Notes under the pieces: model-generated
The model's input: the letters and a program-made list of their open reading frames with translations, nothing else
The model's database searches: none
What the model was told of the DNA's origin: nothing
Assembly: GCA_036505355.1 (NCBI GenBank)
Contig: DASXTP010000105.1
Coordinates: 2,613 to 66,612 of the forward strand
Origin: Candidatus Eiseniibacteriota bacterium
GTDB taxonomy: Bacteria; Eisenbacteria; RBG-16-71-46
DNA: 64,000 bases
Reading direction: 5' to 3'
Shown: piece after piece, positions 23,331 to 59,423 of the stretch
How positions within the stretch are numbered: the first letter of the stretch is position 1
How the letters are laid out: each line of letters begins with the position of its first letter
Position numbers and translations under genes: made by a program

Positions 23331-23331
23331 G

Positions 23332-25017: not shown

Positions 25018-26543
25018 GACGCCAACACCTCCTCGGCCAGGCGCACCGGCGCCTTCGACACCACCCATCGCGCGACCACCTCGCACGGCTCGGACAACGG
25101 CCGATCGCCCTCGGGCGCCGGCGCCAACCGGCGCACCGCTCCATAGAGCCGCTCCGCGCCCTGGCCGGCCTGGAGCGGCCGCCGGAACTCGAGCGCGCGA
25201 CAGGCGCACAGCAGCTCGAGCGCCACCACCCGGGCCGCGTTGTCGACCACCTGGCGCAGGTGCCGCGCCGCGATCGGCGCCATGCTCACGTGGTCCTCGA
25301 GGCCGCCGCCGGTGGGAATGGAGTCGACGCTCGCCGGATGGCAGAGCACCTTGTTCTCCGACACCAACGCGGCCGCGGTGTACTGGGCCATCATGTACCC
25401 CGACTCGAGGCCCGGCTCGCTCGCCAGTACGGCTGGCAGCTCCGAGACCCGCCCGTCGGTGAGGCGGTCGATGCGGCGCTCGGACAGCGATGCCACCTCG
25501 GCAACCGCGATCTTGAGGTAGTCGGCGGCCAGCGCCACCGGCTGGGCGTGGAACAATCCCGCCGAGATCACGATACCCGGTTCGGCCAACACCAGCGGAT
25601 TGTCGTTCACGCTGTTGATCTCGACCTCGAGCTGGCGCTCGACGTGGATCAGGGCATCCCACGATGCGCCCATCACCTGGGGCACGCAGCGCAGGCTGTA
25701 GGCGTCCTGCACGCGGTCGCAGTTGGCGTGGGATGCCACCAGCGCGCTGCCCTCCGAGTACGCGCGCAAGCGCCGCGCGGTCTCGAGCGCGCCCGGATAG
25801 GGCCGCAATCCCTGGACGTCGGCGCGCGCCGGCTGGAAGGAGCCGAGCAGCACCTCGGTGGACAACGCCGCCGCGGCGACCGCCGCTTCCCACAACGCCC
25901 GCGCATCCACGCACGCCAGCGCCGCCAAGGCGGTCGAGAGCTGGGTGCCGTTGATGAGCGCCAGCCCTTCCTTGGCCTCGAGCGTCAGCGGCTGGAGACC
26001 CGCGCCGCGCAGCGCCAAGGCGGCCGGCATGCGCTGGGCGCCGTGATCCGACCCGAGCCACGCTTCTCCTTCCCCGACCAGCACCAACGCCAGGTGGGCG
26101 AGCGGCGCCAGATCGCCCGAGGCGCCGACCGAACCCTGCAGGGGGATGACCGGCGTCAGGTTGCGCTCGAGCAACTGGAGCAGGGCGTCCACCAGCTCGG
26201 GCCGGCAGCCCGAGCAGCCGCGCGACAGCGACGCGGCGCGCAAGAAGATCATGGCCCGGGAAACGTCGCGAGACGCCAGGGGCCCGACGCCAGCCGAGTG
26301 CGAGCGCAGCAGGTTGAGCTGGAGCTGGCGCACTTGCTCGGGCTCGATCGGGTGATCCTTGAGCTCCCCGAAGCCCGTGGTCACGCCGTACACCGCCCGC
26401 CCCTCGGCGAGCGCGGTCTCGATCACCCGCCGGCTCGCCACCAGGCGCTGGCGCGCCGACTTGCCCAGGGTCACCGGAGCGCCCTTCCGGGCCACCTGCA
26501 CCACGTCGCCCAACCCGAGCGGCCGACTCCCGAGCTCGATCAC
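25014..26543 (-). CDS. hutH: histidine ammonia-lyase
   Basis: [15 protein letters not shown] carries the Ala-Ser-Gly triad that forms the MIO cofactor. Confidence 0.9.
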
Positions 26544-33400: not shown

Positions 33401-33775
33401 GCTGCGAATCGACGGCGGCGCCGGACCCGACGGCAGGCACCGGGTGGTACGCCTGCAGCTGCAGTTCGAGCGGCGGCGGGTCCATCAGCCAGCAAGCCCG
33501 AACGAGCAGGGTCTCGCCCGGGATCGGCTCGCGCAGCAGCCTCAGAACGCCACGCGTCCGGTCGAGCGCGTAGTCGACATCGCGCAGCAGAGAACCCCGG
33601 GCGGTCCAGATCGAATCGGTCCCGGCGCGCAAGAAGGCGTGGGGCAGGAGGTATTGAACGGTGCTCGACCGCTGGACCACCGCCACGACACCACAGGCGG
33701 GGTCCGAGACTACCGCCGCCGGCTCCCCGGCCGCCACGCACCGAGCCATCATCAACGCAGCGAGCATCCACCCCC
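30432..33775 (-). CDS. large (1114 aa) beta-rich envelope protein translationally coupled to the Omp85 gene (TamB-like partner or giant OMP; function uncertain)
   Basis: Gly/Arg/Asp-rich repetitive beta-strand-like sequence with a C-terminal ...AELRAFF beta-signal-like ending. Start chosen at MLAALMMARCVAAG after GGGGGTGG. No enzymatic motifs. Confidence 0.45.
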
Positions 33776-33847: not shown

Positions 33848-35007
33848 TCATGGTTTTCGGCCTCGCAGCTCGAGCGACGGATTCGGCTCGGCCTTGATCT
33901 CGTCCACCACGGCAATGCGCACGGCCCAACGCGCCACCCGGCCGGGAGCGGTCTCGGCCACCAGCAGAGAGCCGAGCACGCCCGGAGCGAACGCCACGGC
34001 CCTGGGCCGGAGGAAGTCGTGCCGCTCGGCCAACAGCGCACCGTTGGCGCGGAAGATCCACACGGCACCTGCGGCTTCGTCTGCCACCGCGACCCCGCCC
34101 GAATCGTCCACGGCCACCGCCAACTCTCCGGCCGTCGCCGAGCGGGCCGGGAGCGGGAGTCGCCAGGTGGCGCGGACCGAGCCATCCTGACCGAGCCGCT
34201 GCACGCGCGCGCTCGAAACCTCCACGGTGACCAGATCGCCGCGGGGCGCGACCGCGACCGCCCGCAGCCCGCGGAACGAGCCGGGAGTCGGGCCGAACCC
34301 GCCGATGGCGCGACGGAAGCGGCCCGCGAAGTCGAAGGCCAGGATGCGCTCGCGGGCGGCGTCCACCACGAAGAGCGCACCGCCGCGATCGGCCGCCAGG
34401 CCCGTGGGATCGACACGTCCCAGTTGGCGCTCGAGCTCCGGTGAGCCCAGGTCCACGGCGACCCCGAGCCGCCGGCCAAAGAAGTCGTACGTCAGCACCC
34501 TCCGGTTCTCCCGGTCGAGCACCGCCACGCCGAGACCGCCGAGGACCACCACAGAGCCCGGCCGCCGCATCTGCCCCGGATCGCTGCCGAGGGCGCCCGT
34601 CTCGCCCAACAGCCGGCCCGCTCGATCGAACCACTGGAGGCGGTGGAGCGCGGCGTCGGAGACGTACACTTGCCCCATCGAATTCACCGCCATCCCCGCC
34701 GGCTCGATCACCTGACCGGGACCGTCGCCGCTCCCGGCCAGGGTCGACATCTTCATCAGCACGACGCGCTCGTTGCCCGGTCCGCGGGCGGGGGGAACCG
34801 CCGACGGCGCCGCGGGCAGCGTGTCGGGGCGTTCGGAGGGAACCGGTGGAGCCACGGTCGCCGCAGAGTCCGAGCCCGGCGACGAGTCCGCGAACGATGC
34901 CGCGACCCTCGGATCGGGAGCCACCGAAGTGACCGCCCGCGGCGGCGAACTCGCGGCCGCCGAACTCTCCCACGGCAGGGCGATCCAAGCCGTGGCCAGC
35001 GCCCGCA
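33848..35007 (-). CDS. NHL-repeat (six-bladed beta-propeller) protein with signal peptide and Pro/Ser/Ala-rich linker
   Basis: GTG start gives MRALATAWIALPW. Linker SSPPRAVTSVAPDP...PPARGPG. Repeated blades of the type GxxxxPxGxAVdxxGxxYVxDxxnxRvxxf (e.g. GQVYVSDAALHRLQWFD, GALFVVDAARERILAFD). Confidence 0.65.
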
Positions 35008-35036
35008 CGAGGGGAATGCCCCCCCGTCGGCTCCAC

Positions 35037-35175
35037 TTGAAATGGCGCGATCGACTGCGTTGGCTCGGTCGGTTGCTTCCTCGATGCGGCTTGAAGACCA
35101 CGATCCCCGGGCACCCGCCGCAGGCGGGTCGCCATCCTTCGCACGCCTTGCGCTCGGACGTTTTCAAAACGGAGC
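35037..35175. repeat. ~135-bp repeated intergenic element, copy A (about 80% identical to copy B at 46105-46235)
   Basis: Shared blocks: GAAAACG, CTGCGTTGG(C/T)TCGGTC, GAAGACCACGATCCC, CTTCGCACGCCTTGCGCTCG, CGTTTTCA. Lies 30 nt upstream of the NHL-repeat gene start codon. Confidence 0.6.
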
Positions 35176-35192
35176 CTTCCGCAGCCTGCGGC

Positions 35193-36070
35193 TCAGAAAT
35201 GCACGCGCACCCCGAACTGAAACGCGGTCGGGTCGCCACCGACCGGGACGCACTCCAGATTCCACGACCGCGCCGCCGCCGCGGCGCCGCCCGCATAGCG
35301 GGCGGCGTGGATCGCGCTCACCAACCGGTTGGCGATCGCCAGGGCCAAGGCGGTGTTGGCCCGAAGCGCCGCGCGTTCGGCGCGCTTGCGCTCGTCGCCG
35401 TATTGGCGATAGCTCTGCTCGTCGGCCCACGCCCAGGTGTCCGAGCCCGTGAGCTGGTGCTGGGCGATGTATTGGTTGTACGCCGCCGGATCGCCGTAAT
35501 AGAGGTTGGCGGCGTCACGCCGGACCACCAGCCGATTGTATTCGTCGCTGCTCGGGTACTGCCCGACGATGCGACGGAACTCTTCGTCCCGCGACCGCAG
35601 GTCGATCCCGGCGAACAGTTGCGCCGTACGCTCGTAGGTCAGGCGCCGCAACTGCTCCTGGATCCGAAACGAGGTGAACGAGGCCCAGACGCCGACCTCG
35701 GCCACGGCAAAGACCTTGGCCGAGGTGCGCCGGCCGAGCGTGGCTTGGCCCCACCCCGGAACCGTGAGCGACTGGAGGAGAATGCGGGCGCGTTCGACCC
35801 CGAGCCCACTCACGTGCCCGCGCCTTCCGCTGATCGAGGACCGCCGCTCGCCCCGGCCCGTGGCGAACCCCTCCATCGCGGATGACGCCAGGGCGAGCCG
35901 CGAGCACTCCACCGGCGAGCCGGTCCCGTGCGCATCGAGCGGCAGGGCCCGATCCTCGGCACCCGACCACGAAGGATCGAATGGTGCCGCGGTCCGGGCG
36001 CCCAACTCGGGCCCTTCGCTCCATCGCTCGGCTCCTGATGCTTGCGTCGCGGCCGGGCCCACCGTCATCA
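35193..36070 (-). CDS. conserved hypothetical secreted/outer-membrane protein, VPGWGQ-motif family (paralog 2)
   Basis: LLQSLTVPGWGQATLG...WASF and Tyr/Trp-rich C-terminal half ending ...FQFGVRVHF (terminal Phe). About 35% similar to the adjacent paralog. Confidence 0.5.
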
Positions 36071-36109
36071 TGGCAAGCCCGACCCACGCTCGCAGGACCA
36101 CTCGAGGCC

Positions 36110-36898
36110 TCACCGGAAGCTCCTCTGGACGGCGAGCCGCATCTCCGGTCGGCCCTGCCGGAGTCGAGCGTTGGCCTTGAGCTCGAACCCGCGCCCGAGC
36201 GCCAGGTGCCGGTTTCGCGCGGCGCGCAGCCCGTCGGCAGCAGCCAAGAGATGATTGACCCACAGGCCGACCTCGACCCCGCGCGCGCGCCCGAGCTTCT
36301 GGTTGGAGCGCAGGCGCAGGTCGTCGAACTGCTCGCGGGAGGTCGCGTCCGCCCAACCGGGCAACAGCCGCGATTCCGAAGCGATGGCGTCGTAAAAGGC
36401 CTCGTGATCCGCCGCGTACAGCGTTTCGAGCGACGACGGGTCCTCGCCGGTGGCATCGGCCCAGCGCTCGAAGGACCAGGTGCTGGCCGAATCTCCGGGG
36501 GCTCCCACCATCGCCGTGGCGTCGTCGCGCAGTCGATCGGCGTCGCGGTGGAACAGCCACCAGCCCGCCCACCCGGCCGCCTCGGCGACCAGGAACCACA
36601 GGCCACGGGGCTCTCCCTCCACGAGCTGGCCCGTTCCCGGCACCGCGGCCGAAAGCACCAACGCCCGCAGCTCGGCATCGGCTCCCGGCGTCCGCACCAC
36701 GCTATCCTCGGGGACCGTCCACTCGCGCTCGATGGCTCGCTGCGCCAGCAGTAGCTCCGGCTCCCTGGAGTCCGCCAGGCATGCCAGCGCCAGCGCCGAT
36801 CGGTCCGCCGGCGGGGGCGCGGCATGGTCCCACCGCGCGCTCGCCTCGGATGGAAACGGCACCGACAGGGTGAGCGCCAAGACCATGCAGCCGATCAT
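36110..36898 (-). CDS. conserved hypothetical secreted protein, VPGTGQ-motif family (paralog 1)
   Basis: Signal peptide MIGCMVLALTLSVPFPSEASA. LVLSAAVPGTGQLVEG...WAGWWLF and ETLYAADHEAFYDAIASE segments align with paralog 2. ATGA overlap with the upstream M6 protease stop. Confidence 0.55.
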   Translation of the reverse strand: MIGCMVLALTLSVPFPSEASARWDHAAPPPADRSALALACLADSREPELLLAQRAIEREWTVPEDSVVRTPGADAELRALVLSAAVPGTGQLVEGEPRGLWFLVAEAAGWAGWWLFHRDADRLRDDATAMVGAPGDSASTWSFERWADATGEDPSSLETLYAADHEAFYDAIASESRLLPGWADATSREQFDDLRLRSNQKLGRARGVEVGLWVNHLLAAADGLRAARNRHLALGRGFELKANARLRQGRPEMRLAVQRSFR

Positions 36899-39800
36899 CG
36901 GATCAACCCCACCGTCATCACCTCGCTCTGTTCCGAGCCGGCGCTCCGGAACTTGAGGCGAGCCAGATACAGCCCGGCCGGCACTTCGCCCGGATCCCAA
37001 ACCTCCAAGTTGTCAGCACGCCGGCCCGCGCGGCGGAACGAAGCCACCTCGTGCCCCGAGGTGTCGAGGATCTTGAATTCCACGTCGGCCGGCTCGCTGA
37101 GCTGGTAGGCAAAGGCCACCGGGCGGCGCCGCGCCGGGTTGGGAAACACCTTGAGCGATCCCCGGACCAGCGGACCCGCGCTGGGCGGGCCGGCCGCCGC
37201 GGTCCGAACCAGATCGAGCGTGCTGGTTCGCCCCGGATCCCCACCCACCATGGTCCAGGCGCTCGCGATCGGATCGGCCAGCGGCGTGGGGAGCGAATAG
37301 GCATAGAGCGAGCCGAAGCGCGAGTTCTCGACATCGCGCAGGCTGTCGGTCACCGCCCGATCCGGCACCACGATCTCCACCGTGCCGTCGCGATCGAGAT
37401 CGGCCGCCACCGGCGAGCCCACCACCCCGGAGCCGCTCGCGAGCGGCCAGCCGGTGGGCTGCCCACCCGACGCGGTCAGCGCGGCGACGATGCCGCTGCC
37501 GTTCATGGCCACCACCTCACCGCGCCCGTCTCCGTCGACATCCACCAGCAGCGGTGGGCTGTCGGTGCGCAAGCTCTCGTGGGTCGCGCGCCGCGGCCAT
37601 CCCGGCGAGGGGTACCCGCTTTGGTTCCAGAATGCCACCCGCGAGGTGGTCGACTGGGTGAGCACCTCGGCATAGCCGTCCCCGTCCGGATCCCCGGCCC
37701 CCAGCGACGCCACCAGCGTGTCGCCCAGCGCACGCCCCCAGCCCGGCAGGAGATTGCCGACCGGACAGAAGGCCCACAAACGATCGGCGTAATGGGCGAT
37801 CAACGTTCGTTCCCCCGATCCGCAGGTCGCACCCTCCGTGGCAGGCCGCCCCCGCCCGTCGAAGTCGAGCCACAGGAAATCGGGCTCGAACCCCGCACCC
37901 CCTAGCCGCTGGGGCCAGTCACCGGCGACGTTGAACCCACCGCCGAACGGACCGCTGGGATCATCATCCAGCGCCGCCACGTCCCCCTCCCCCCCGCCGG
38001 CAGCGATCCTGGCCATGCCCGGGGGCGCACCCACCGGATTGGGGTCCACCGCGAGCCGGCCGCTCACTCCACCGGCGAGCGCGAGCCCGCTCACCGCTCG
38101 AATCGAGCCGTCGAGCCGCAACGCGTACACATGGCCGTCCGCACATCCTACATACACCGTGGCGTTGGGAGAGAATCCGGCGATCACCGGTGGCGTGGTC
38201 ACGATCGAGGGCAACGGCGGGGGCCAGCCGGGCAAGGCGGCCCCGGCGGAATCGACCAGCCACACGCGCCCGCCGGCGAAGCTGGTGTCGGGCCCATCGG
38301 GGAAGGTCGTGACCGCGAAGTACGATGGCCCGCGCAGCGGCTGTCCCGGCACCCCCGGTTCGCCGAGCGGGAGCGCCGCCATCACCGCTCGCGGTCGCCG
38401 GTCCAGATGGGCGAAGGCGGCGGTGCTGTCGCGGACCCCGCGGCCGCTGACCCGCACCGCGAACAGCGCCGCGCTGTCGGGGCTGTCGATGGCGCCACCC
38501 GCCCAGCACACCTCGAGCGATCGATCCCCGTCGAGGTCCGTGGCCAGCAGCACCGGGCCGCCCGGCGGAAAGTCGCCGGCGGCCGGCCACCCGGCGAGCT
38601 GCCACGTCCGCGACGCCGAGAAGCGCATCACCGGACCCGGGTCGTCGAGGAAGTCGAGACGCACGTGTGGTCGGGTCCCGATGTGCGGGCTGAGGTTGGG
38701 CGTGGTCGAATCGGAGAGCGACGGATTGTTGCTACGGAAGTAGGGATCGAACGGGCTCCCGAGCACGAACGGCGAGCTGATATCGCCGAGGTCGCCGAGC
38801 CCGTCCGCTTCGATCACCGTCTCGCCGCGCCGCGCCGGGTTCGAGTTGAAGCCGTAGTCCGGGTTGACTCGTAAGGCGGTGGTGAACGGGATCACGCTGG
38901 CGTCGATGTGCCACACCACCATGCCGCCGCCCGGCAGTAGCGCGTCGTACTCGAACCGGTCGGGCCGCTTGGGCCCGAGCACCACCCGGGTCGTCATGTC
39001 CTGGTCCAGATCGACGGTGTCCGCCGGAGCCAGGTGGCGATTCTCGAGCAGCAGGTACTCGTCGCTCGACAAGAACACCCGGCGAACGTCGGGGTGGCGT
39101 TCGATGTCGGTCACCGCCATGGTGTCGCCCCACGAAGGCTCGACGAAGTCGAGCGTATCGGTGGTGAAGAACCGCTGGAAGGGATCGACGCTCGGCGGCA
39201 GCAGGCCGGTGGCGAAGATCACACTGCCGTCCCTCAGCTCGACCAGGGAACCGGCCAGGTTCCCGGCGTCCATCAGACTCCACAAGCCTGTCACCGGATA
39301 GCCGCTGTTGACGTCGTAGACGTCGTACATGCCGAACAGATTGTGGCCGTTCTCGTGAGCGATCACGCCGTTCAGCGCGCTGTAGAAGCCATCCTGGATC
39401 TCGGTCTCGGGCACGAAGGCGCAACGATCGATCGGGCGGAGGCGGTTGGTGGAATCGGGAAAGATCACCACGTTGGTGTCGTCGAGACCGACGGTGAAAG
39501 ATGGGATGTCGAGCGGGCTGTCGAACCGGACGTCGCTCTGCGCGTCGCTGCCGGCGTGGATGATCATGAAGCGATCGTAGGCGTCCCACGGGATGCGATC
39601 CCCGAGCACGATCGACTGGGAGTCGGCAGCGAACATCATGGTGCGGAACATGTGGACCGCGGCCGCGTAGAGGTCCACGGTCGCATCCCAAGGTCCGAAG
39701 TCGGCCATGTCGCTGACCGAATAGGCTTGGGTTTCGGAGCGCGGCCAGACGTCGCCCTCGATCACGGTGCGGCCATAGGACTGGGCGTCGTAGAAGCGCC

Positions 39801-40362
39801 GCAGCGCCTCCAGGTGAGCCAAGCAGAAGGTCCGGTTGTGAGGTGGCCGATCGATCGGCGGCGCCAGCGTGTCGGGTCCCGAGAGGTCGAAACGGCCGTC
39901 CCCGGTCGAGCGGTCTCCGTCACGATCGGCCCGAAAGTCGATACGCAGGAACGCGACCCGTATCGTGTCGGGCGGGCCCAAGGTGCTCGCCACCGCCATC
40001 TCCGGGGTGCCTTGCCCGGTCCCCGCTTCCGTGGTTGTTGCCGGGCTCCTCGAGCGGGCGGCGGTGGGAAGGTGCGGATTGCGGGCCGGAGTAGCGGGCG
40101 GCGTCCATTCGCGGCGGCGGTTGGCACGCGCCGACCAGTCCACCGCGGGCGGGCTCAGGAAGTGGCGAAGGCGTCGCCAGCGCTCGAGCCGGGCTGCCGA
40201 GAGCCGCCTCGCCTCCTCGAGCACCCGGGGCTCGAGCTGGCCGCGGGCGGCGTCCGAGGATCGCAACCGGCGAACAACGAGACGGCCGGAGGAGGACGCC
40301 TCACTCTCTCCGGCCAGCGACAGGATCAGAACGATGCCAACTGCCAGATACCGTCCGCCCAA
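36895..40362 (-). CDS. secreted M6 (immune-inhibitor-A-like) zinc metalloprotease with FG-GAP/VCBS-type repeats and T9SS-type C-terminal sorting domain
   Basis: Signal peptide. HENGHNLFG HExxH zinc motif. Repeated DxDGDG calcium-binding-like turns (DLDGDRSLEV, DVDGDGRGEV, DLDRDGTVEI). C-terminal ~90 aa KVFPNPARRRPVAFAYQLSEPADVEFKILDTSGHEVASFR...AGLYLARLKF...MTVGLIR match the Por-secretion (type A) sorting domain. Confidence 0.75.
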   Translation of the reverse strand: MGGRYLAVGIVLILSLAGESEASSSGRLVVRRLRSSDAARGQLEPRVLEEARRLSAARLERWRRLRHFLSPPAVDWSARANRRREWTPPATPARNPHLPTAARSRSPATTTEAGTGQGTPEMAVASTLGPPDTIRVAFLRIDFRADRDGDRSTGDGRFDLSGPDTLAPPIDRPPHNRTFCLAHLEALRRFYDAQSYGRTVIEGDVWPRSETQAYSVSDMADFGPWDATVDLYAAAVHMFRTMMFAADSQSIVLGDRIPWDAYDRFMIIHAGSDAQSDVRFDSPLDIPSFTVGLDDTNVVIFPDSTNRLRPIDRCAFVPETEIQDGFYSALNGVIAHENGHNLFGMYDVYDVNSGYPVTGLWSLMDAGNLAGSLVELRDGSVIFATGLLPPSVDPFQRFFTTDTLDFVEPSWGDTMAVTDIERHPDVRRVFLSSDEYLLLENRHLAPADTVDLDQDMTTRVVLGPKRPDRFEYDALLPGGGMVVWHIDASVIPFTTALRVNPDYGFNSNPARRGETVIEADGLGDLGDISSPFVLGSPFDPYFRSNNPSLSDSTTPNLSPHIGTRPHVRLDFLDDPGPVMRFSASRTWQLAGWPAAGDFPPGGPVLLATDLDGDRSLEVCWAGGAIDSPDSAALFAVRVSGRGVRDSTAAFAHLDRRPRAVMAALPLGEPGVPGQPLRGPSYFAVTTFPDGPDTSFAGGRVWLVDSAGAALPGWPPPLPSIVTTPPVIAGFSPNATVYVGCADGHVYALRLDGSIRAVSGLALAGGVSGRLAVDPNPVGAPPGMARIAAGGGEGDVAALDDDPSGPFGGGFNVAGDWPQRLGGAGFEPDFLWLDFDGRGRPATEGATCGSGERTLIAHYADRLWAFCPVGNLLPGWGRALGDTLVASLGAGDPDGDGYAEVLTQSTTSRVAFWNQSGYPSPGWPRRATHESLRTDSPPLLVDVDGDGRGEVVAMNGSGIVAALTASGGQPTGWPLASGSGVVGSPVAADLDRDGTVEIVVPDRAVTDSLRDVENSRFGSLYAYSLPTPLADPIASAWTMVGGDPGRTSTLDLVRTAAAGPPSAGPLVRGSLKVFPNPARRRPVAFAYQLSEPADVEFKILDTSGHEVASFRRAGRRADNLEVWDPGEVPAGLYLARLKFRSAGSEQSEVMTVGLIR

Positions 40363-40389
40363 GAGGGGTACCGGTTGCGAGGGCGTCCG

Positions 40390-41337
40390 CTAGAAGCGGT
40401 AACCGAGCGTGAGCTTCTTCACGTACCCGAGACCCGAGTCCTTGGCCTCCGGGATGCTGCCCAAGTCCAGGTTCAGGCCCTTGAAGGTCACCCCGATCCC
40501 ATACGTGAAGTCGCTGATATCCCCCAGCGGATCCTCGTACCATCCGATGCGGCCGGCCAACTGATCCGCATACCGTAGCTCGAGCCCACCGTTGTAGGTG
40601 CGGAAGTCGTTGGTGACCAGCGATTGGTTGAAATCGCCGACCATCAGGGCTCCATAGTTCTTGTTCGAATAGGCCTCCCACGCGAACCCGGCCTTGATGT
40701 TCCGGCCCAGCGGATCCGCCTTGTCCGCGTCGACGAACGCCACGCTGGGGCCCAGGTTCTGCACGTTCATTCCGAGGCTGAGCCGTGCCGCCGGGATCCG
40801 GTAGAGGCTCGCCAGATCGAGCCCGAACGTCGCGCCCACGCCCCCCGGATTGTCCGGATCGAGCTGGATGCGGATGTACTTGAGCGAGGCGCCGAGCGCG
40901 AACTCGGGAAGGATCTGCGTCCCGTAGTAGAGGGCGGGCGAGAACTCGTTGGAGCCGAACGTGCCCTGGGGGTCTCCGGTCTGGCCGGTCCGGTCGCTCT
41001 GCCCATAGGAAAGGAACACCACGCCGAGCCCGAGCGCCCCCCACCCCTGCACCGGGTGGACGTAGGTGAGGTAGTTGTAGCTCACGTCGCTCGCCAGGCT
41101 GGGGACGAGCTGCGCGTAGGTCAGCTCGACCGCTTTGCGATTCACGAAGCCGAGGGCGGCCGGGTTCCACCACGTCGCACCGGTCGGATCGTCGGCCACG
41201 GCCACCCCGGCGGCCCCCATCCCGTTCTGTCGGCCCCCGGGCTGGATATCGAGAGATCGGCCGGTGCCCTGGGCCCCAGCCGAAGAGGCCAGGATCAAGC
41301 CCAGGAGCACGACCAAGAGATTGCGCAAGAACCGCAT
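40390..41337 (-). CDS. porV: PorV/PorQ-family outer-membrane beta-barrel protein (FadL-like; T9SS cargo shuttle homolog)
   Basis: Signal peptide MRFLRNLLVVLLGLILASSAGAQG. N-terminal GGRQNGMGAAGVAVADDPTGATWWNPAALGF matches the PorV signature (GMGGAGVA...NPA). Ends ...LTLGYRF. Located directly downstream of the porU-like gene, as in Bacteroidota. Confidence 0.7.
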   Translation of the reverse strand: MRFLRNLLVVLLGLILASSAGAQGTGRSLDIQPGGRQNGMGAAGVAVADDPTGATWWNPAALGFVNRKAVELTYAQLVPSLASDVSYNYLTYVHPVQGWGALGLGVVFLSYGQSDRTGQTGDPQGTFGSNEFSPALYYGTQILPEFALGASLKYIRIQLDPDNPGGVGATFGLDLASLYRIPAARLSLGMNVQNLGPSVAFVDADKADPLGRNIKAGFAWEAYSNKNYGALMVGDFNQSLVTNDFRTYNGGLELRYADQLAGRIGWYEDPLGDISDFTYGIGVTFKGLNLDLGSIPEAKDSGLGYVKKLTLGYRF

Positions 41338-41441
41338 ACGAGCTCCTCCGGACACGCTACCAGCCCCTGTCCCAGTTGGATGAAACATACTACACCGGGC
41401 CGGGCCCCGAGGCTCCAAGGTTTTTTCCCGAGCCGAGTTGG

Positions 41442-44400
41442 CTAGCGATTGACGATCACGAACCGCCCTTCCGCGTGGGCCTTCTGGCGGTCACTGCTGG
41501 TCCCATTCGGGGCCCGCGGATTGACGTGCACGCGGAACAGGTAGACGCCGTTGGCGAGCACTCCACCCTCGTCGTCCCGCCCATCCCATGGGATCTGCAC
41601 CTGCCCCAGACCACCCAGCGCCTCCAAGGTCCGGACCAGTCGTCCCGACACCGTGTAGATCCGGAGCAGCACGTTGACCGAATCGCCCGGCGCATCCACC
41701 ACGAAGCTCCCTCCGGCACCCGGGCCTCTCGAAGCGGTGGGGTTGGGGAACAGCAGGGCCCGCTCGACCTTGAGCCCGGGATTGTCGGACACCTCGAAGT
41801 CGATGACGGCGGTGGAGCGGTGTTCCGCGGCGGCGATCCCGAACGCGAGATTGTCGGCGGCGCTCACGACGATGCGGTGGGGCCCGGAGCTCAGTCCGGG
41901 CAACTGGTAGGTGGCGGTGCCGGACTGGTACGAATCGGCTGCGTAGCGGAAGCTCGAGGTGATCTCCTGGCGCTGTCTCGAGCTCCCGTCGGTGGTGACG
42001 ACGATTCCGTTCTGCGGTTTGTGGCCGGTGATCAAAATCCCGTTCGGATCGAACAGGTCAACACGCAACACCGCGGTCGGTCGCACCGAGCGGGCGTTCC
42101 CCGGGAACGAGAGCGTGATGTGTGGGCCTTCACGGTCGTCGGCAGGCGGCGTGCCGACTGCGACCTCGAAGGGCAGACTGCCGGCGCCGTCCGAATCCGC
42201 CGGCGCGCCTTGGACGTAGGCGCGAGCCCGTGCGCGCGGACCGGCCACTCCATCCATGGGCACCACGAATCGGCCCTCGAACCGGCCGCCCGATAGGCGA
42301 ACGTCGCCACGGAACATCGGCGCCGCGCGAAACGGATACGTCTTGCAGACACCGAAGGCGCAGTCCGGGAGCGTGTCGACGGGCGCGGAATCCTCGATCA
42401 ACAGCGAGGCGCTGCCATCGAGCGGTATCGGCGCCCCCCCGGGCCGTTCGACCACCTGGCCACGGATCGTCAGGCGCCGCCCCCGGATCGCCTGACCCAC
42501 GGCGTTGCCAAACGAGTCCTCGAGCGCCACCTCGACGAACAGGCGCGGCAGGAGCAGGCGGGTCGCCGCGTCACCCATGAGCTGATACTTCTGGTTGTTG
42601 GTGCCGCCGGTCTTGGCAGCGAGCAGGGCCGTGCTGAGCGTGTTGAAATACTGACCACTGGCCGGCTCGCGCTCGAACACCTGGTGGAATAGCGCCTGGT
42701 TGAGCGAGGCGTTGATGTTGGTGAGCGCCAGCTCGGTGGCCGAAATCACGCCGATACAGCCACCGTTCGGATTGAGGATGAGCCGCTCCCCCAGGCTCTG
42801 CACCGTGGGGTCGTTGTACCGGCCGACGTCGCAGGAGGCGGCCACGAACACGCTCGGGCGCGTGGCGTTCACCATCCCTTCGGCATCGGTGTCGAGCAGC
42901 ACGCTCTCGTCGGCGATCTTGAACGGGCTGCCGTGGCCGATGAAATTGAACAACACCACCCCTTGGTTCACCTCGTTCAGGATGTCGTTCCGCGCGGCGG
43001 GCTTGGTGTCGTTTGGCCCGTCCGGGTAGCGGTGCAAGTACACATAACCGCGGTCGATATGGGCGGGCAGGGCGTCGCGGTCGAGGGCCGCGGTCTGCTC
43101 GACATGGAGCCAGGCGAGCGGGTCGGGGTCGGCGCCCGCCTTGTCGTCGTCGGCGATCAGCATCACGCGGTTGCGCCAGTCGCCGAGCGGCGCACCGCGT
43201 TCGTAGGCCACCAGCTTGCGCACGTAAGCCAGCGCCCCCGCCGCGTCGCGGGCCGGAATCCGACCACCCTGGAAGTCCGGGATCACCTGCGTCGGGTTGT
43301 CCACGTTGAGCAGCCAGTCATCGGTCGCGAACTGGCGCAGCACCAGGAAGTTGAGATCGAAGCCCCCCTCGTAGCTCGGCAGCAGCCCGGGCGAGAACCC
43401 GACCGGAGCACCTCCCTTGAAATTCTTGAAGTCGGAGGTGGCATCCCCGAGCAGGGTCACGAAGGTCGGCACCTTCCCCCAATGGAACGCCGCGTGCAGA
43501 AAGTTCCGGACCGCCCCGGGATCGGTACGGCCGCCGGAGAACTGGTCGTACACCGCCGACAGCGGCACCGAGACGGCCTCGTAGGGCGGATCCGATGCCA
43601 GCGGCAGGTGATCGCGGCGCCAGGCCAGCAGTTCTTGGGCGGCGAATTGCAGGCCGTCCAGGTAAATGATCAGGTAGTCGGCGCGGTGCGTGAGGTCGCG
43701 AAGGTTTTCGAGGCTCGAGCTGGGCGCGTCGAACACCTCGCTGTTCGGCAGCTTCACGATCCGCGACGCATCCGGCCAGTCAGTGACGATCCGGTATCGA
43801 CGAACCTCGCCTGCCCCGGCCTCAACCGGCCGAAAGCGTAGTCGCCACGCGCCCGGGCCGAGCTGATCGTAGCCGGGCGGAAGGACGGTGATTTCGATCG
43901 GTTCCAGAGGATTGGTGACATCGAACACCCGCGGCATCGAGTCGGGGCCCACGGTGAAGGGTCCGATCCGGTAGATGTCGTCGCCGGTCGTCGGCGGTGC
44001 CTCGAATTCGAGCTGGTTGCCTACCGGCTCGAAGCGCCGCTGATAGAAGAGGTCGAACCACGCCACCCCGACCCGGTCCACCCGCAGCGGGGCGAGCCGC
44101 GGATCGCGGTCGATGTAGTCCACCACCGTCATTTCCAGACGGGCGCCGCTCTCGGCCAGCCCGGTGAATGTGGTGTCGAACGTCTGGGCGCTCTGGAGCC
44201 CGGCACTGACATCGGCGCCGTTCCCGTTCCAGCCCCGGCGCGGGAAGCTCAACGACCCCAGGCGGACGTCCACATAGTGATCGAAGACTCCAGGACTCTT
44301 CGGGGTAGGCACGGCGGGCAGCTCCGGGAACGGCGGCAGGCCCCACAGCCGCAGCCTCAGCCGCGCCGGCTGGCTCGGATCGATCCCGGGGGCTGCAGCC

Positions 44401-45818
44401 TCCGGAGCGAAGGTTTGGCCGCGATTGAGGCTGGTCCAGAACCATTTCTCCCAGAACAGAGTGCTGCGCTGATAGCTGCCGTCGTCCTCAAGGCCCGTGA
44501 TCGGCGAGGCGGAGGGCCAATACTCGTTGTCCGCCTCGTGATGGAGGCGCTCCGGAAAGCTCAGGGGCGTCACGGCGACGGTCGTGTCCAGCAACGCCCG
44601 GGACCTGGACGCGATGCGCAGCGACGAGTCGGGCATCGGGTCTTCGGTCGTGGCGATCGTCAGGTAGTAGTAGTTGCGGGTCTCGTAGGGATGGTCGATG
44701 GAGGTCGTCTCGGGCTGGGAAGGGTCGTAGAAGTTCGCCCAGTCGCTGGGACCGAGGGCGAAGAAGTAGAAATACTCTTGGTTTTTGTTGAACTTCCCGT
44801 CGCCGTCTTCGACGAACTGGATGGCCACCTCCCGCAGGCCGCACGAGTCGCAGTAGCTGTCCTCGGGGAGGACCGGAAGTCCGGGCCAGGTGAAGAGCCT
44901 CAGACTGTCGAGGGGAGTGTTCAGGCTGTCGGCGAAGAGCTCGCTGTTCCGCACCTGGCCGAACTCGACCCGATAGAAGCCGGTCGTCGGGATGGCGATC
45001 TTCACCCACCGACGGCCGGCATAGAGGCTGGTATCGGGCACCACGCTCGCCATGCGCGGCGCGGCAGCCCGACTCGCCACCGGCGCGACCCGGGCCGGGC
45101 GCTCCGCCCCGCGCCAGGCCTTGCCCTGCTCGTAGTTGACCAGCACCGCACGGTACACGGACTCGAACGGGTCCGGAGGCGCAACCGGGCGACTTTCCTC
45201 GGTCCCGCCTTCCCATCGAACCTCGACCTCGACCCGGTGGTGGATGGTGAGGCGGCGATCGGCCGCGTCGTACTCCGCCGGGCGGACCGCGATGCGCGCG
45301 ACGCGCTGGTCCCTCATCCACGAGAGTCCGATCAAACGGGCGACCGAGGGTGGAGGACCGGTTGCGCGTCCGCCGGCGCCCCGCTCGCCGGTCGCAAGAG
45401 CCCAACCCGGCGTCGCTCCTCCGATCATCCCCTCCCCTCGCCCGGCCACGGAGGGGTTCGCGAGCAGGATGCCCTCGCGCACGTCGGTGGCGGCCACGCT
45501 GGCGGTGACTCGAACCGTCCCCTGAGGCGGCACGGCCACGCACAGCACCCGCTCCGGCAACCGCGATTCGCCCGGACCACCGCCTCGATCGTAACCTGGC
45601 AGCTCGAGCTGGAGCCCTTGGCCGGGAGACGGAACGGGCTCGAGTTGGGCCTCCGGGACGTCCACCAGCAGACGCACGCCCGTGGGAGAAGCGGCCAGCA
45701 GCCGCACGGCGCGGGGTTGGGCCTTGACCGTCGCAGGCGCCAGGCACAGCAGCACCAGGTGCGACCGCAGCGCGTGGCGCAGCCCCCGCCGGATCGACCA
45801 CGCCGGCCGAGGGCGCAC
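41442..45818 (-). CDS. porU: PorU-like C25 (gingipain-family) cysteine peptidase / T9SS sortase homolog with C-terminal sorting domain
   Basis: Signal peptide. C25 His/Cys dyad context (FNFIGHGSPF ... VFVAASCDVGRYND). Very large multi-Ig-like body. C-terminal LLFPNPTASRG...VLLRIYTVSGRLVRTL...GVYLFRVHV...GRFVIVNR sorting domain. Start (GTG 45818) uncertain. Confidence 0.65.
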   Translation of the reverse strand: MRPRPAWSIRRGLRHALRSHLVLLCLAPATVKAQPRAVRLLAASPTGVRLLVDVPEAQLEPVPSPGQGLQLELPGYDRGGGPGESRLPERVLCVAVPPQGTVRVTASVAATDVREGILLANPSVAGRGEGMIGGATPGWALATGERGAGGRATGPPPSVARLIGLSWMRDQRVARIAVRPAEYDAADRRLTIHHRVEVEVRWEGGTEESRPVAPPDPFESVYRAVLVNYEQGKAWRGAERPARVAPVASRAAAPRMASVVPDTSLYAGRRWVKIAIPTTGFYRVEFGQVRNSELFADSLNTPLDSLRLFTWPGLPVLPEDSYCDSCGLREVAIQFVEDGDGKFNKNQEYFYFFALGPSDWANFYDPSQPETTSIDHPYETRNYYYLTIATTEDPMPDSSLRIASRSRALLDTTVAVTPLSFPERLHHEADNEYWPSASPITGLEDDGSYQRSTLFWEKWFWTSLNRGQTFAPEAAAPGIDPSQPARLRLRLWGLPPFPELPAVPTPKSPGVFDHYVDVRLGSLSFPRRGWNGNGADVSAGLQSAQTFDTTFTGLAESGARLEMTVVDYIDRDPRLAPLRVDRVGVAWFDLFYQRRFEPVGNQLEFEAPPTTGDDIYRIGPFTVGPDSMPRVFDVTNPLEPIEITVLPPGYDQLGPGAWRLRFRPVEAGAGEVRRYRIVTDWPDASRIVKLPNSEVFDAPSSSLENLRDLTHRADYLIIYLDGLQFAAQELLAWRRDHLPLASDPPYEAVSVPLSAVYDQFSGGRTDPGAVRNFLHAAFHWGKVPTFVTLLGDATSDFKNFKGGAPVGFSPGLLPSYEGGFDLNFLVLRQFATDDWLLNVDNPTQVIPDFQGGRIPARDAAGALAYVRKLVAYERGAPLGDWRNRVMLIADDDKAGADPDPLAWLHVEQTAALDRDALPAHIDRGYVYLHRYPDGPNDTKPAARNDILNEVNQGVVLFNFIGHGSPFKIADESVLLDTDAEGMVNATRPSVFVAASCDVGRYNDPTVQSLGERLILNPNGGCIGVISATELALTNINASLNQALFHQVFEREPASGQYFNTLSTALLAAKTGGTNNQKYQLMGDAATRLLLPRLFVEVALEDSFGNAVGQAIRGRRLTIRGQVVERPGGAPIPLDGSASLLIEDSAPVDTLPDCAFGVCKTYPFRAAPMFRGDVRLSGGRFEGRFVVPMDGVAGPRARARAYVQGAPADSDGAGSLPFEVAVGTPPADDREGPHITLSFPGNARSVRPTAVLRVDLFDPNGILITGHKPQNGIVVTTDGSSRQRQEITSSFRYAADSYQSGTATYQLPGLSSGPHRIVVSAADNLAFGIAAAEHRSTAVIDFEVSDNPGLKVERALLFPNPTASRGPGAGGSFVVDAPGDSVNVLLRIYTVSGRLVRTLEALGGLGQVQIPWDGRDDEGGVLANGVYLFRVHVNPRAPNGTSSDRQKAHAEGRFVIVNR

Positions 45819-45835
45819 CGGTGAGGAGGGGCTCA

Positions 45836-46003
45836 GAACTTCTCGGCCTCCTCGATCAGGAAGTTCGGGATGTCGTCGACGACCTTGTACCGCAGCCGGC
45901 ACCGATGGCAGGTGAAGGTGTTGGCTTCGGCGCTGTACTCCAGGTCGCCCTTGCAGGCCGGACACACCAGCAACGCGAGCAGGTCAGGACTCAGGGCCAT
46001 GGG
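45836..46003 (-). CDS. UPF0434/Trm112-like zinc-ribbon protein (YcaR family)
   Basis: MALSPDLLALLVCPACKGDLEY...FTCHRCRLRYKVVDDIPNFLIEEAEKF: CPxC...CxxC ribbon with the conserved DGIP-like motif. 55 aa. Confidence 0.7.
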
Positions 46004-46104
46004 ACTCCTCGACGGCGAAGATTCGAGTGACCGCCGCGCGGCCGGTCACGGTGAACAAGGGGGTCACAAGGCGCTTGAAATCCTCTCCTCCGGCGGGCGC
46101 GGCA

Positions 46105-46235
46105 AAGTCAGGCCGTGTCTGAAAACGCCCGATCCCTGCGTTGGTTCGGTCATTCCTCGCTCGATGTGGCCCAAAGACCACGATCCCGCTCGTCTCTCCC
46201 TCGCACGCCTTGCGCTCGCGCGTTTTCAGACACAG
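46105..46235. repeat. ~130-bp repeated intergenic element, copy B, with 14-bp terminal inverted repeats
   Basis: GTGTCTGAAAACGC at the left end and GCGTTTTCAGACAC at the right end (perfect inverted repeat). Internal sequence about 80% identical to copy A (35037-35175). Lies ~100 nt upstream of the ycaR-like/porU operon. Confidence 0.6.
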
Positions 46236-46259
46236 CCTAGCCAGCCCCTCGGCCGAGGG

Positions 46260-47243
46260 TCAAGCCGACCCGGCGCCAGCCTCTCCTGATGACTCGCGAA
46301 ACACTCCGATACCCCGATATTTTCGCAGTCGCCCTTCGACCAGCTCATCACCGGATACACCGATCATGGCGTCCAGGTGCCGCACAACCGCCGCCCCGAG
46401 CGTAGCGGCCGCCGCCTCGGCATCCCGGTGGGCACCGCCCAGCGGCTCGGGCAGCACGCCGTCGACGACGCCCAACCGCGCCAGGTCGGACGCGGTGAGC
46501 TTGAGAGCCTCCGCCGCCAACGCGCCCTTCTTGCCATCCCGCCACAGGATCGAGGCACACCCTTCGGGCGAGATCACCGAATAGATCGAGTTCTCGAACA
46601 TCAGCACCCGATCCGCCACCGCAATCGCCAGCGCCCCGCCGGACCCTCCTTCGCCGACGATCACGGTCACGATCGGCACCGGCAGGCGAGCCATCTCCCG
46701 CAAGTTGACCGCGATCGCCTCGGCCTGGCCGCGCTCCTCGGCTCCCAGTCCCGGGTAGGCTCCCGGGGTGTCGACCAGGGTGACCACCGGCATGCGGAAT
46801 CGCGCCGCGGTCTGCATCAGTCGGAGCGCCTTGCGATAGCCCTCGGGGTTCGCCATGCCGAAGCGCCGCTGCAGGTTTTCCTTCGTGTCGCGGCCCTTCT
46901 GGTGTCCGATCACCATCACCGGTCGGCCGTCCAGGAACGCCGGGCCGCCCACCACCGCCGGATCGTCGGCGAAGTGCCGGTCGCCGTGCAGCTCCATCCA
47001 TCCCTGGAAACAGCGATCGATGTAGTCGAGCGCGTAGGGCCGCCGCGGGTGGCGGGCGAGCTGGACTCGTTGGTACGCAGTCAGGTTCGCGTAGATCTCG
47101 CGACGTAGGGCCTCGGCCTTGCGCTCGAGATCGTTGACCTCCGCGCGTGAGTCCAGGCCTCCTTCGGCGGCCTGGGTCTTGAGCTCCTCGATCTTCTGCT
47201 CGAGCTCGAGGACCGGCTTCTCGAAGTCCAGCCAGACCGTCAT
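46260..47243 (-). CDS. accA: acetyl-CoA carboxylase carboxyltransferase alpha subunit
   Basis: MTVWLDFEKPVLELEQKIEELK N-terminus, oxyanion-hole region ...GGSGGALAI..., typical 327-aa length. ATGA overlap with dnaE, the conserved dnaE-accA arrangement. Confidence 0.9.
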   Translation of the reverse strand: MTVWLDFEKPVLELEQKIEELKTQAAEGGLDSRAEVNDLERKAEALRREIYANLTAYQRVQLARHPRRPYALDYIDRCFQGWMELHGDRHFADDPAVVGGPAFLDGRPVMVIGHQKGRDTKENLQRRFGMANPEGYRKALRLMQTAARFRMPVVTLVDTPGAYPGLGAEERGQAEAIAVNLREMARLPVPIVTVIVGEGGSGGALAIAVADRVLMFENSIYSVISPEGCASILWRDGKKGALAAEALKLTASDLARLGVVDGVLPEPLGGAHRDAEAAAATLGAAVVRHLDAMIGVSGDELVEGRLRKYRGIGVFRESSGEAGAGSA

Positions 47244-50200
47244 GTCGCCGCCTTTCCCCAGCGCACCCGAAGCTCCGGGAAGCGCTCCTGAAGCCGCGCG
47301 ATCAGCGCGTCGTCTTCGGCCACGCGGAAGCGCCGGGATCGCAGCGCCCGCCGCAGGTGGTTCGGCCCCACGATGTGTAGATACACCTCCGATTCCCCGG
47401 GGCACGACGACAGGACCTCGTCCACCCCGACCATCCAGTCCTCGCTGAGCTGCTCGGCTCGCATCTCGATGTGGAGGTGCCGGCGATAGGCGCGCTGCGC
47501 GTCTTCGTACGGACCCACTTCGGTGAGCAGCAACCGCACCGGCCGCTCCTCCCGCACCTCGACTCGACCGGTGGCCACCACGACGCGATCCGCCACCAGG
47601 TGCGAGCGCGCCGCCTCGAACGCATCCGGGAACACCGTGCATTCGATTCGCCCGCTCAAATCCTCGAGGGTGATCACGGCCATGCGTTTGCCGCCTCGCG
47701 TGGTGATCGGCTTGACGTCTCCGATCAAGCCACCCACCCGGACCTCGGAGCCGTCTTCGAGCTGGGCCGACTCCGCCACCGAGTGAGTCGTGATCCGCGA
47801 CAGCGACTCGCGCAGCGGCTCGAGCGGGTGCTCCGAGAAATAGAAACCCAACACCTCCTTCTCGCGCGTGCTGCGATCCCGCTGGGTCCACGCCGGAACG
47901 TCCGGCAGCGGAGGCGCGACCACCGCCACGCCCCCCTGATCGGTCCGCTCCCCGAACAGCAGCGATTGCCCGCTTTGCCGCTCGCGGCTCATCGCCGCGG
48001 CCAGCTCGAGCATCGGCCCGGCCGCGGCGAACAGGGCGCCGCGCTCGGGCCCCAGTCCGTCGCACGCCCCCGCCGCCACCAGGCTCTCCAGCACCCGGCG
48101 GTTCACCGCTCGACCCTCCAGCCGCCGTGCCAGGTCGAACAGGTCACGGAAGGGCCCGCCCGCCTCGCGCGCCGCCACCAGCACCTCCACCGCCGATTGC
48201 CCGACGTTGCGCACCGCGCCGAGACCAAACCGGATCTGCCCTTCCTCGAGCCCGAACGTCCACTCCGATCGGTTCACGTCGGGGGGCAGGAGTTCCAGGC
48301 CCAGCCGGCGGACCTCCTGGATCAGGGTCACGATCCGCGCGCTGTCGCCCATCTCGCTGGTCAGGGTGGCGGCCATGAACTCGGCCGGGAAGTTCGCCTT
48401 GAGGTAGGCGCACTGGTAGGCGAGGAGGGCGTAGGCGGCGGAATGGGAGTTGTGGACGACCAGGCCGTTGGCCACGAAATTGTGGTCTACCTCGACGGTG
48501 AGATCGTAAGTGTCTTCAAATCCGCGCGGCTCGATCGAGGTGACGCGGTCCCAGAAGACGTCGGAACAGGCTATGTCCATGAGACGACGAGAGTCGAAAA
48601 AGCGGGCGAGCCTCGCCAACGTGGAGCGTCGGAAGCCACGCTTGAGCCGTGAGCCGTTCCCCGTGGACTCGCGCATCGACACGCCCGATGCTTCCTCGAG
48701 TTCTCGCCACTTGAGCCCCAGCCTGACCCTCTCTTGCGCGACCCATCTCCTGATCTCGGGGGGGATCGTGTCCCGGCTCGTGCGATCAGGTGCCGCATCG
48801 GACACGCGGGCTCTGAGCTGTCCCACTTGTTTCTCTCGGCCGACGATGTGGGGCACAATCGTCTCGAGGAACGTCCGTACCGTATTCTCTCCTAGAAGGT
48901 TCACCGTGAAGCCCCGTTTGAGCCCGCCGCGGTATTTGAACTGTTTCCTGTGGATCCCGCTCACCATCCCGAGCCGCAGCAACAGGGTCTGAACGCCGCG
49001 GGCGAGGCCTTCCGACGAGGTTGCATGGAAGGGGACGGCATTCGTTCGGTTTGCAATGAAGCCGTCGCCGGCCCACAGCCGCCCGAGGAATATCTCGAGG
49101 TCACAATTACGGAGGAGAAAGACCTCACCCGGAATGCGTTTTTCCGTGGCCCTGCAACCGAGCACTCCCAACCGCTGCGCCCACTGGAACGCCCCCGAGC
49201 GTCGCACGGGAGCATCCAGCACCAGTGCGAGATTGCCTTCCGTTGTCGCGAGGTACTCGTCCGCGACCTCTCGAACTCGGCCTGCCGATGGACCCAGATT
49301 GGCGCAGACCTCCATCCTGCCGCCCGGTCGGGTATCGATCCTCGCAACCGTATCGGGAAAACAAGCGATCGCCCGAGCAAAGTCGTCCACCAGCGCCCGG
49401 TCATTGCCGTAGAAGTAGAGACTCGTGGGATGACAGGTGTTGCCCTCGGCGATCAAGCCTGCCAGCGTGATCAACTCGTGCCTGGGCCATGTCCGCCTCC
49501 CCGCTACTTGCAGTCGGCGGGCAACCGCGACCCGATCACCGAGCTTCAACTCGGCCAGATGCTTCCAGCCATCGAGTGTCCGGAACGGATGATTGGCCGT
49601 CGCCGTGATGCGCTTCCCCAGCGCGGTCTGGAGCTCATAGACGAGCTTGCGCCCGTTCCAGACCACGTCGGTAACCTCGCGTGGTCGTAATCGTAGATTC
49701 GCGTCCAGAGCGTGCACCTGGAACGGCCTGCGCTTTTCGAAAAGCGACCGCACGGTCGTCGTCTCACCGGTTGCCGCATGAATGACCTCGGTATCCCCCG
49801 TGAGACAGCGGTTGAACCCGTAGCCGGCGAACTTCTCCATGGTGGCGAAGATCTTCTCGGCCTTCGCCGCCGAGATCTTGCGGTGCCGGCAGCCTTCGAT
49901 GAACGCCAGGCGCTTGGCTTCCATTTCCTCGGGTCGCTTCTTCCCCATCGCCCTTCGCAGCTCGTCGGCTTGGGCCATGGAGAACCCTGCCAGCACGTTC
50001 GCGGCCTGCATGACCTGCTCTTGGTAGACGAACACGCCGTACGTGGCCTTGAGGATCGGCTCCAGGTCGGGGTGGTCGTAGGTCACCACCTTGCGGCCGT
50101 GCTTGCAGTCGATGAAGTAGGGGATGTTCTCCATCGGCCCGGGACGATAGAGCGCGTTCATCGCCACCAGGTCTTCGAACACGGTGGGCTTGAGCGGCCG

Positions 50201-59167: not shown

Positions 59168-59347
59168 GCTCTTTAGAGTCCTCTTTTTCCCGGCCATCCT
59201 TTGGCAGTTCCTGCCCTGACGCCACTTCGGGGAGTTTCCTTCCCGATTAGTCTTCGCTCGCGCCACGCCGTTCAAGTCGCCGATCTGGTTTTCCCTTGCT
59301 CCTCCCCCGCACCGCCGACTAGGTTGTGCGACCGCTTGCCCTCGTGC

Positions 59348-59423
59348 GTCCCTATCGTCTAGAGGCCTAGGACACCGCCCTTTCACGGCGGCAACACGGG
59401 TTCGAATCCCGTTGGGGACGCCA
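59348..59423 (+). tRNA. tRNA-Glu (anticodon UUC)
   Basis: Cloverleaf: acceptor GTCCCTA/TGGGGAC with encoded CCA, D-loop TCTAGAGGCCTAGGA, anticodon loop CTTTCAC, T-arm ACGGGTTCGAATCCCGT. 76 nt. Confidence 0.85.

Follow-up and report, generated by a model that had tools for sequence, protein, structure and literature searches.

We analysed a 64,000-nt stretch of contig DASXTP010000105.1 (hereafter the window) from a metagenome-assembled genome (MAG) of Candidatus Eisenbacteria, a soil or groundwater bacterium belonging to an uncultured phylum. Between positions 36895 and 46003, the minus strand of the window encodes a short Trm112-like protein, a homologue of the sortase PorU, a PorV-family outer-membrane barrel and an M6-like metalloprotease. 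We consider it likely that this locus encodes a module for protein sorting and attachment at the cell surface, as part of a secretion pathway of the type IX kind. The PorU and PorV-family proteins are recognizable as such, the PorU catalytic dyad is intact, the two genes are adjacent, a related C-terminal domain ends three otherwise unrelated proteins, and the arrangement is conserved across the phylum. To our knowledge, the system for type IX secretion (T9SS) has been dissected in Bacteroidota almost exclusively.

The first-pass annotation had described the locus as a type IX secretion-like module of porU and porV, accompanied by sorting-domain cargo, in a lineage of high GC content. The family matches of PorU, the PorV-family protein and the C-terminal domains sustain this description; the interval given, 36895-46003, corresponds to trm112-porU-porV-M6, and GC content across the window is 62-73%. 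Such a module would be expected in Eisenbacteria because the phylum is a relative of the phyla of the Fibrobacterota-Chlorobiota-Bacteroidota (FCB) group, so that the locus would extend a known system instead of representing a new one. Eisenbacteria and Latescibacterota share a well-supported common root (PMC11323493), NCBI taxonomy places Latescibacterota in the FCB group, and other phyla of this group have been reported to contain components of T9SS (PMC11285876). In the literature searched, we found no paper linking Eisenbacteria with T9SS, and PorU2/PorV2 turned up only incidentally.

PorU, the PorV-family barrel and a shared C-terminal domain

The porU gene (41442-45818, minus strand, GTG start) encodes a 1458-aa protein with an N-terminal signal peptide. 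The product passes the NCBIfam PorU model NF033707 (448.6 bits, cutoff 420) and gives a full-length match to Peptidase_C25 (PF01364, E 1.2e-66), which places the catalytic domain at 42555-43676 (residues 764-1137 in the numbering of the long open reading frame, ORF). Further Pfam matches are to Propeptide_C25 and FlgD_ig. The sole match among PDB sequences is PorU of Porphyromonas gingivalis, 6za2 (E 1.9e-51), and the alignment is colinear over residues 751-1442, with IGHGS paired with AGHGG and AASCD with ATCDF. We predict a catalytic dyad of His962 (codon 42933-42935, in IGHGS) and Cys996 (codon 42831-42833, in AASCD). The C-terminal 115 aa are included in the alignment, where the motifs FPNP, IY..SGRLV, WDG and NGVYLFR pair with those of the 6za2 C-terminal domain (CTD). 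The giant C25-like protein is thus a PorU homologue, as had been proposed, and retains a CTD of its own, delimited at 41445-41789 with a local hidden Markov model (HMM).

The pair resembles the P. gingivalis attachment-complex genes porU (PG0026) and porV/lptO (PG0027) in the adjacency of the genes, the C25 His/Cys dyad, the type-A CTD carried by PorU itself and the ~700 colinear residues. It differs in that PorU is longer here (1458 aa vs 1156-1158 aa), with a divergent N-terminal ~600 aa in which only residues 255-390 match weakly, and no porQ or porZ was recognized nearby in the Eisenbacteria locus. The nearest PorU relatives among genomes are in Eisenbacteria MAGs (44-61% identity), and more distant homologues score 554 bits (locus L029) and 649 bits (L036) on NF033707. 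The models for the 'PorU2/PorV2 putative type IX sorting system', NF052324 and NF052325, are matched weakly, by PorU at 93 bits (cutoff 450) and by the PorV-family protein at 27 bits (cutoff 325). Public records name the PorU orthologues 'hypothetical', 'C25 family cysteine peptidase' or 'peptidase C25-like/FlgD'. A JGI contig of 100,686 bp encodes a protein with 100% identity to the window PorU.

PorU-like C25 proteins also occur in Anaerolineae and Ca. Amarolinea (L031, L033, L035 and L040), with 25% identity over residues ~25-1050. These proteins score 264 bits on NF033707, below its cutoff, contain DUF11 repeats and have neither a CTD nor a PorV neighbour; at L040 the next gene encodes an SdrC/D-like adhesin.

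Downstream of porU, on the same strand and after a gap of 104 nt (41338-41441), lies the gene for a 315-aa outer-membrane barrel of the PorV/PorQ family (40390-41337). The gene has a GGAGGAG ribosome-binding site, and its product the signal peptide MRFLRNLLVVLLGLILASSAGAQG. The protein exceeds the cutoffs of the PorV/PorQ family model NF033709 (166.9 vs 90 bits) and of the Pfam PorV family PF19572 (48.7 vs 27), and also gives a weak Toluene_X/FadL match. Its sole match in the PDB is Flavobacterium johnsoniae PorV (6h3i_F, E 3.1e-17), the PorV chain of the SprA-PorV translocon (6h3i, 8gl6), which is longer (402 aa). In every related locus with sequence past the 3' end of porU, porV adjoins it. 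The porU-porV synteny was therefore called correctly, and only the position of a Trm112/YcaR-like gene, said to be wedged between the two, was wrong: the 104-nt gap holds no free-standing ORF, and the gene lies upstream of porU at 45833-46000. In the distant lineage represented by L043, the PorV gene (984-3560) encodes 858 aa, with a Reg_prop-like N-terminal region fused to the PorV barrel.

PorU, the M6-like protein and an S8 protease encoded elsewhere in the window each end in a related domain of ~90-115 aa. An HMM seeded on these three tails found exactly three copies in the window, on those proteins only, and 63 more in 40 related loci, giving a family set of 66. All 66 domains end at most 25 aa from the stop codon, and their carriers are C25, M6 and S8 proteins. 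The type-A sorting profile TIGR04183 matches 60 of the 66 (counted at E<=0.01; best E 3e-8), Por_Secre_tail (PF18962) matches 22 and CHU_C 14. Like the T9SS type-A CTD (TIGR04183/PF18962), the tails, ~80-90 aa long, sit at the very C-terminal end of proteases with Sec signals, contain PNP, (I/Y)D.SG..V and G.Y..R motifs, and are predicted to fold as a seven-strand immunoglobulin (Ig)-like sandwich. The AlphaFold2 (AF2) model of the M6 CTD, built from database fragments, is a seven-strand sandwich with a predicted local distance difference test score (pLDDT) of 81; used alone as a homologue query, this domain returned only 25 short orthologue fragments. Among the fold matches of the model, the CTD of Tannerella forsythia mirolase (8qb1) stands at rank 15 and has the highest identity (23%). 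We classify the window tails as a divergent type-A-like sorting domain. The earlier description of a 'characteristic' sorting domain is true at the level of the family only, because each of the three window copies is below the TIGR04183 cutoff.

The gene that follows porV (36895-40362, minus strand) encodes the 1155-aa M6-like metalloprotease. For the earlier assignment of this gene to M6, PF05547 is passed marginally (23.8 vs cutoff 22), and the CTD attributed to it is present at 36898-37182 (local HMM), if below the TIGR04183 cutoff when taken singly. The protein has the zinc motif HENGH..G..D.Y (HENGH at 39343-39357), and its C-terminal half is a propeller, with an FG-GAP_3 match and matches to designer propellers in the PDB. 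It is below the cutoff of TIGR03296 (58.1 vs 110.8 bits) and of NF052323 (139.7 vs 600), the 'T9SS-dependent M6-like inactivated metalloprotease', with which it shares the architecture of a C-terminal propeller followed by a CTD. All 24 orthologues examined retain HExxH (as HExxH..G..D.Y), and for this reason the Eisenbacteria M6 proteins are not the inactivated form. Given that synteny with porU-porV is so tight across distant lineages, the M6-like protein may be a component of the system instead of ordinary cargo.

The S8 subtilase (54159-57239, minus strand, 1026 aa) matches PF00082 (E 1.6e-40) and has an FG-GAP region with FG-GAP_3 matches. As predicted, it ends in the same kind of CTD (54162-54446), which the seeded HMM recovered. 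Inspection by eye gave plausible signal peptides at the N-termini of the PorU, PorV-family, M6-like and S8 proteins. All four genes are on the minus strand, within a long minus-strand run defined with codon-position GC and a codon-usage gene caller.

Several results weigh against a type IX sorting module. The PorV-family barrel fails both equivalog models, scoring 105.5 bits on PorV (NF033710, cutoff 250) and 85 on PorQ (cutoff 220). Taken singly, the window CTDs score 16-21.5 bits on TIGR04183, 1.5-7 bits under the cutoff of 23 (21.5 for PorU, 17.6 for the S8 protein), and they do equally well or better on FlgD_ig (PF13860; 40.6 bits for the PorU CTD). Pfam favours FlgD_ig over Por_Secre_tail in the family as a whole (51/66 vs 22/66). 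The fold search with the M6 CTD model was non-discriminating, returning generic Ig-like sandwiches, all with E >1e-3. Finally, no gldK/L/M/N, canonical sprA, sprE/porW, porT, porQ or porZ was found when the remaining called window genes of at least ~160 aa were scanned with NCBIfam and Pfam, nor in the 10 kb beyond the left end of the window, as read on the JGI contig (~74 kb in total); those 10 kb contain type IV pilus genes only.

For a sorting module of this kind we infer the following route, including its binding, cleavage and anchoring steps and the nature of the translocon. The M6-like, S8 and PorU proteins, each with an Ig-like sorting domain at the C-terminus as well as a Sec signal, would be delivered to the periplasm, and a large-barrel translocon would then take the CTD proteins across the outer membrane. 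The FadL-like PorV-family barrel would hold them by the CTD, and they would then be handed to PorU, whose C25 His/Cys site is the candidate for removal of the CTD. By analogy with P. gingivalis, this putative cleavage is probably coupled to transpeptidation, in which PorU would transfer the new C-terminus to a surface glycolipid.

Conserved gene order, the downstream giant barrel and alternative readings

Gene order was compared by tblastn of the window proteins against the 40 loci. Wherever an Eisenbacteria contig is long enough, the order is fixed as S8-M23-dnaE-accA-trm112-porU-porV-M6, followed by two genes for hypothetical membrane proteins, an NHL-repeat gene and the gene for a giant beta-barrel candidate that we call BIG. 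A 3.6-Mb Eisenbacteria contig has the same order from porU through BIG, with an Omp85 gene directly after BIG. The segment trm112-porU-porV-M6 is kept in ~30 Eisenbacteria MAGs (PorU identity 44-61%) and in lineages at only 26-34%; at L029 PorU identity is just 26% and the order is unchanged. The longer block, from porU, porV and M6 with its CTD through two DUF5683-like genes to NHL, BIG and Omp85, is conserved in genomes of 53-75% GC, L029, L043 and L048 among them, at 23-40% identity to the window proteins. BIG relatives at 23-31% identity sit in such a block in L043 (GC 53%) and L048 (GC 61%). L046 and L047 have only the NHL-BIG-Omp85 triad, and one member (L044/L045) has BIG alone. The Omp85 gene adjoins BIG in six of the seven distinct contexts examined.

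In the window, these downstream genes are all on the minus strand. The first (36110-36898), whose start overlaps the M6 stop codon (ATGA), encodes a hypothetical 262-aa membrane protein for which no family match was found. It is a tandem paralogue of the second, DUF5683-like membrane protein (35193-35912, 239 aa); the two products share 31% identity and a VPGxGQ motif. DUF5683 (PF18935) matches orthologues of the pair in other lineages, one of them above the gathering cutoff, and the literature on DUF5683 yielded no useful information. The NHL-repeat beta-propeller gene (PF01436, E 7.7e-19) runs from 33848 to ~34762, with an uncertain start, as the ORF is open up to 35317, and is kept directly upstream of BIG even in distant lineages. 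BIG itself (30432-33755) encodes ~1100 aa ending in ...ELRAFF, with two SprA-type small-domain motifs. The last gene, whose start overlaps the BIG stop codon, encodes a 570-aa Omp85/POTRA protein (28720-30432) with matches to PF01103 and PF07244 and a sub-cutoff match to TIGR03303.

The NCBI entry 100% identical to BIG is hypothetical protein VGK93_07605, and a Pfam scan of BIG found no domain. The family comprises 3072 representatives at 50% identity, nearly all of 1100-1200 aa. An AF2 model based on 40 homologues (pLDDT 76.8) has ~36-40 long strands, a number that would put BIG on a par with SprA for the largest barrel formed by a single chain. A TamB-like reading of BIG was rejected: there is no DUF490/TamB match, every fold match is a closed barrel, and BIG has long strands and a C-terminus of the outer-membrane protein (OMP) type.

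These genes lead to an alternative that we think unlikely, namely that porU, porV, M6, the two DUF5683-like genes, NHL, BIG and Omp85 make up the whole outer-membrane machine as a compact, self-contained variant. BIG would then be a minimal SprA-like translocon, assembled or partnered by Omp85, in a system that may dispense with the canonical 2400-aa SprA and perhaps also with the GldKLMN motor. The predicted ~36-40 strands and the OMP-type C-terminus (...LRAFF) fit such a role, and SprA chains (8gl6, 8gl8 and 6h3i) are the best Foldseek matches of the BIG model (E 5e-9 to 2e-6), ahead of LptD, TonB-dependent receptors and ushers. However, the template modelling (TM) scores against SprA are only 0.26 and 0.15, and the largest PDB barrel would be the first match of any giant barrel.

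The sequence comparison is similarly divided. The SprA model TIGR04189 is the sole NCBIfam match of BIG and the only family that BIG matches consistently, recurring in 36 of 40 close family members and in 30 of 41 diverse ones (best E 4e-10), but the match is local, to a small domain of ~50 aa that is repeated in both BIG and SprA and is also phage-tail-protein-like. SprA tops the PDB matches of the profile of the diverse BIG family, though not significantly (E 0.13), and neither the BIG sequence nor the close-family profile has a significant match among PDB sequences. Since BIG reaches 18.2 bits on TIGR04189 against a cutoff of 200 and is ~1100 aa long against ~2400 aa for SprA (2403 aa in F. 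johnsoniae), it is not a member of the SprA family and is at most a distant analogue. Encoded five genes downstream of porV, it does parallel F. johnsoniae SprA in its best fold match and its small-domain motifs, yet we are doubtful that it functions like SprA.

Gene order also argues both ways. Genomes of 53%, 61% and 62% GC contain the full cluster again, at 23-40% identity, and the ~74 kb without any canonical T9SS core gene found is in keeping with a compact system. Against this, the order of the surrounding housekeeping genes (dnaE, accA, dinG and hut) is conserved too, which makes synteny weak evidence, and canonical sprA may sit elsewhere in the genome. The tightest partners of BIG are NHL and Omp85 and not PorU and PorV: L046 and L047 have the triad with no porU close by, and BIG stands alone in L044/L045. 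BIG is thus a giant barrel with the NHL propeller and Omp85 as its closest partners, linked often, but not always, to porU-porV. We give a low probability to the idea that the eight-gene cluster encodes a type IX-like machine of compact form for export and attachment, in which BIG would replace SprA and the M6/propeller/CTD protein, instead of being free cargo, would be a constant part of the machine, either PorZ-like or acting as a processing protease. If true, the cluster could represent an ancestral or minimal T9SS outside Bacteroidota.

It is highly improbable that the locus is no secretion module at all, and instead encodes a C25 protease of the cell surface, a substrate channel of the FadL type and proteins sharing a FlgD-type Ig adhesion domain, with neither CTD-directed export nor sortase chemistry: the FlgD_ig label that Pfam gives the tails more often than Por_Secre_tail, the sub-cutoff TIGR04183 scores of the window tails, the weak Toluene_X/FadL match of the PorV-family protein, the naming of PorU orthologues as hypothetical or C25 peptidases and the Anaerolineae PorU-like proteins without CTD or PorV neighbour would all suit it, but PorU is above a PorU-specific cutoff and matches the solved PorU including its CTD, porV keeps its place beside porU, all 66 tails stand strictly at the C-terminus of otherwise unrelated enzymes, and the type-A sorting profile matches 60 of the 66.

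A sorting module in Eisenbacteria, which we prefer to both alternatives, would extend the sorting chemistry, through a recognizable PorU-PorV pair and a divergent FlgD-Ig-like CTD, to a phylum whose proteins are called hypothetical or C25 peptidases in databases. It would also offer a practical rule, in that a C-terminal FlgD_ig/TIGR04183-like tail should predict the surface and secreted proteome of Eisenbacteria. What the analysis adds is the divergent CTD subtype, the fixed M6/propeller/CTD partner gene and the conserved downstream pair of giant barrel and Omp85 as a translocon candidate. The BIG family, with its ~3000 cluster representatives, and Omp85 are candidates for the passage of CTD proteins across the outer membrane where a canonical translocon may be lacking.

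The Trm112-like gene and the remainder of the window

The Trm112/YcaR-like gene (45833-46000, minus strand) lies between accA and porU, with its stop codon 14 nt from the porU GTG and a GAGGAG ribosome-binding site before its ATG. The 55-aa zinc-ribbon product matches PF03966 (44.8 vs cutoff 22), has CPAC and CHRC cysteine pairs, and gives sub-cutoff matches to NF038101 and NF008806. In length, in its CPxC...CxxC pattern and in its Pfam Trm112p match it resembles Escherichia coli YcaR and other bacterial Trm112-like proteins, from which it differs in genomic setting, 14 nt upstream of porU. The function of bacterial Trm112/YcaR is not known (PMC5372719), and we found no reports in the literature linking Trm112/YcaR to porU.

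Every Eisenbacteria locus that reaches upstream of porU has trm112 beside it, as do the distant loci L029 (9333-9497), L034 (1144-1308) and L036 (9342-9521). L034 keeps accA-trm112-porU, while in L036, labelled Gemmatimonadetes, the genes farther upstream differ (TolC, NAAT). From its presence in these three loci we conclude that the adjacency, as read from gene order, predates the phylum. The gene is probably co-transcribed with porU; a scan of 35000-47400 for promoters and terminators gave no signal above shuffled expectation. The Trm112-like protein has no signal peptide and is cytoplasmic, and for that reason we assign it no direct surface role. A functional Trm112-PorU complex was set aside, as Trm112 lacks a signal peptide and PorU is a surface protein.

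Upstream of trm112 the minus-strand run continues with accA (46260-47243), dnaE (47240-52033) and an M23-like gene (52085-54076), which precedes the S8 gene. The dnaE gene contains a LAGLIDADG-type intein at ~aa 743-1197, which is present in some Eisenbacteria orthologues (for example L004, L012, L014-L016 and L023) and absent from others (for example L002, L006, L018 and L020). On the other side of the locus, downstream of 28708 and still on the minus strand, dinG is followed by the hut operon, a complete histidine-utilization set, hutH-hutU-hutI-ftcD, at 20438-26543 in the same co-directional run.

Two transposase genes were seen, an intact one of the IS630 family (16369-17307, plus strand) and a DDE_3 fragment (872-1378, minus strand). 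The stretch 59200-64000 has a lower GC content (62-67%), short ORFs without family matches and a gene with an SLFN/AlbA_2 domain; it reaches to within ~0.6 kb of where the source contig ends and is a possible mobile island. On the same contig, ~3-10 kb to the left of window position 1, is the type IV pilus set pilB-pilT-pilC-pilS-pilR (L051 13866-20507).

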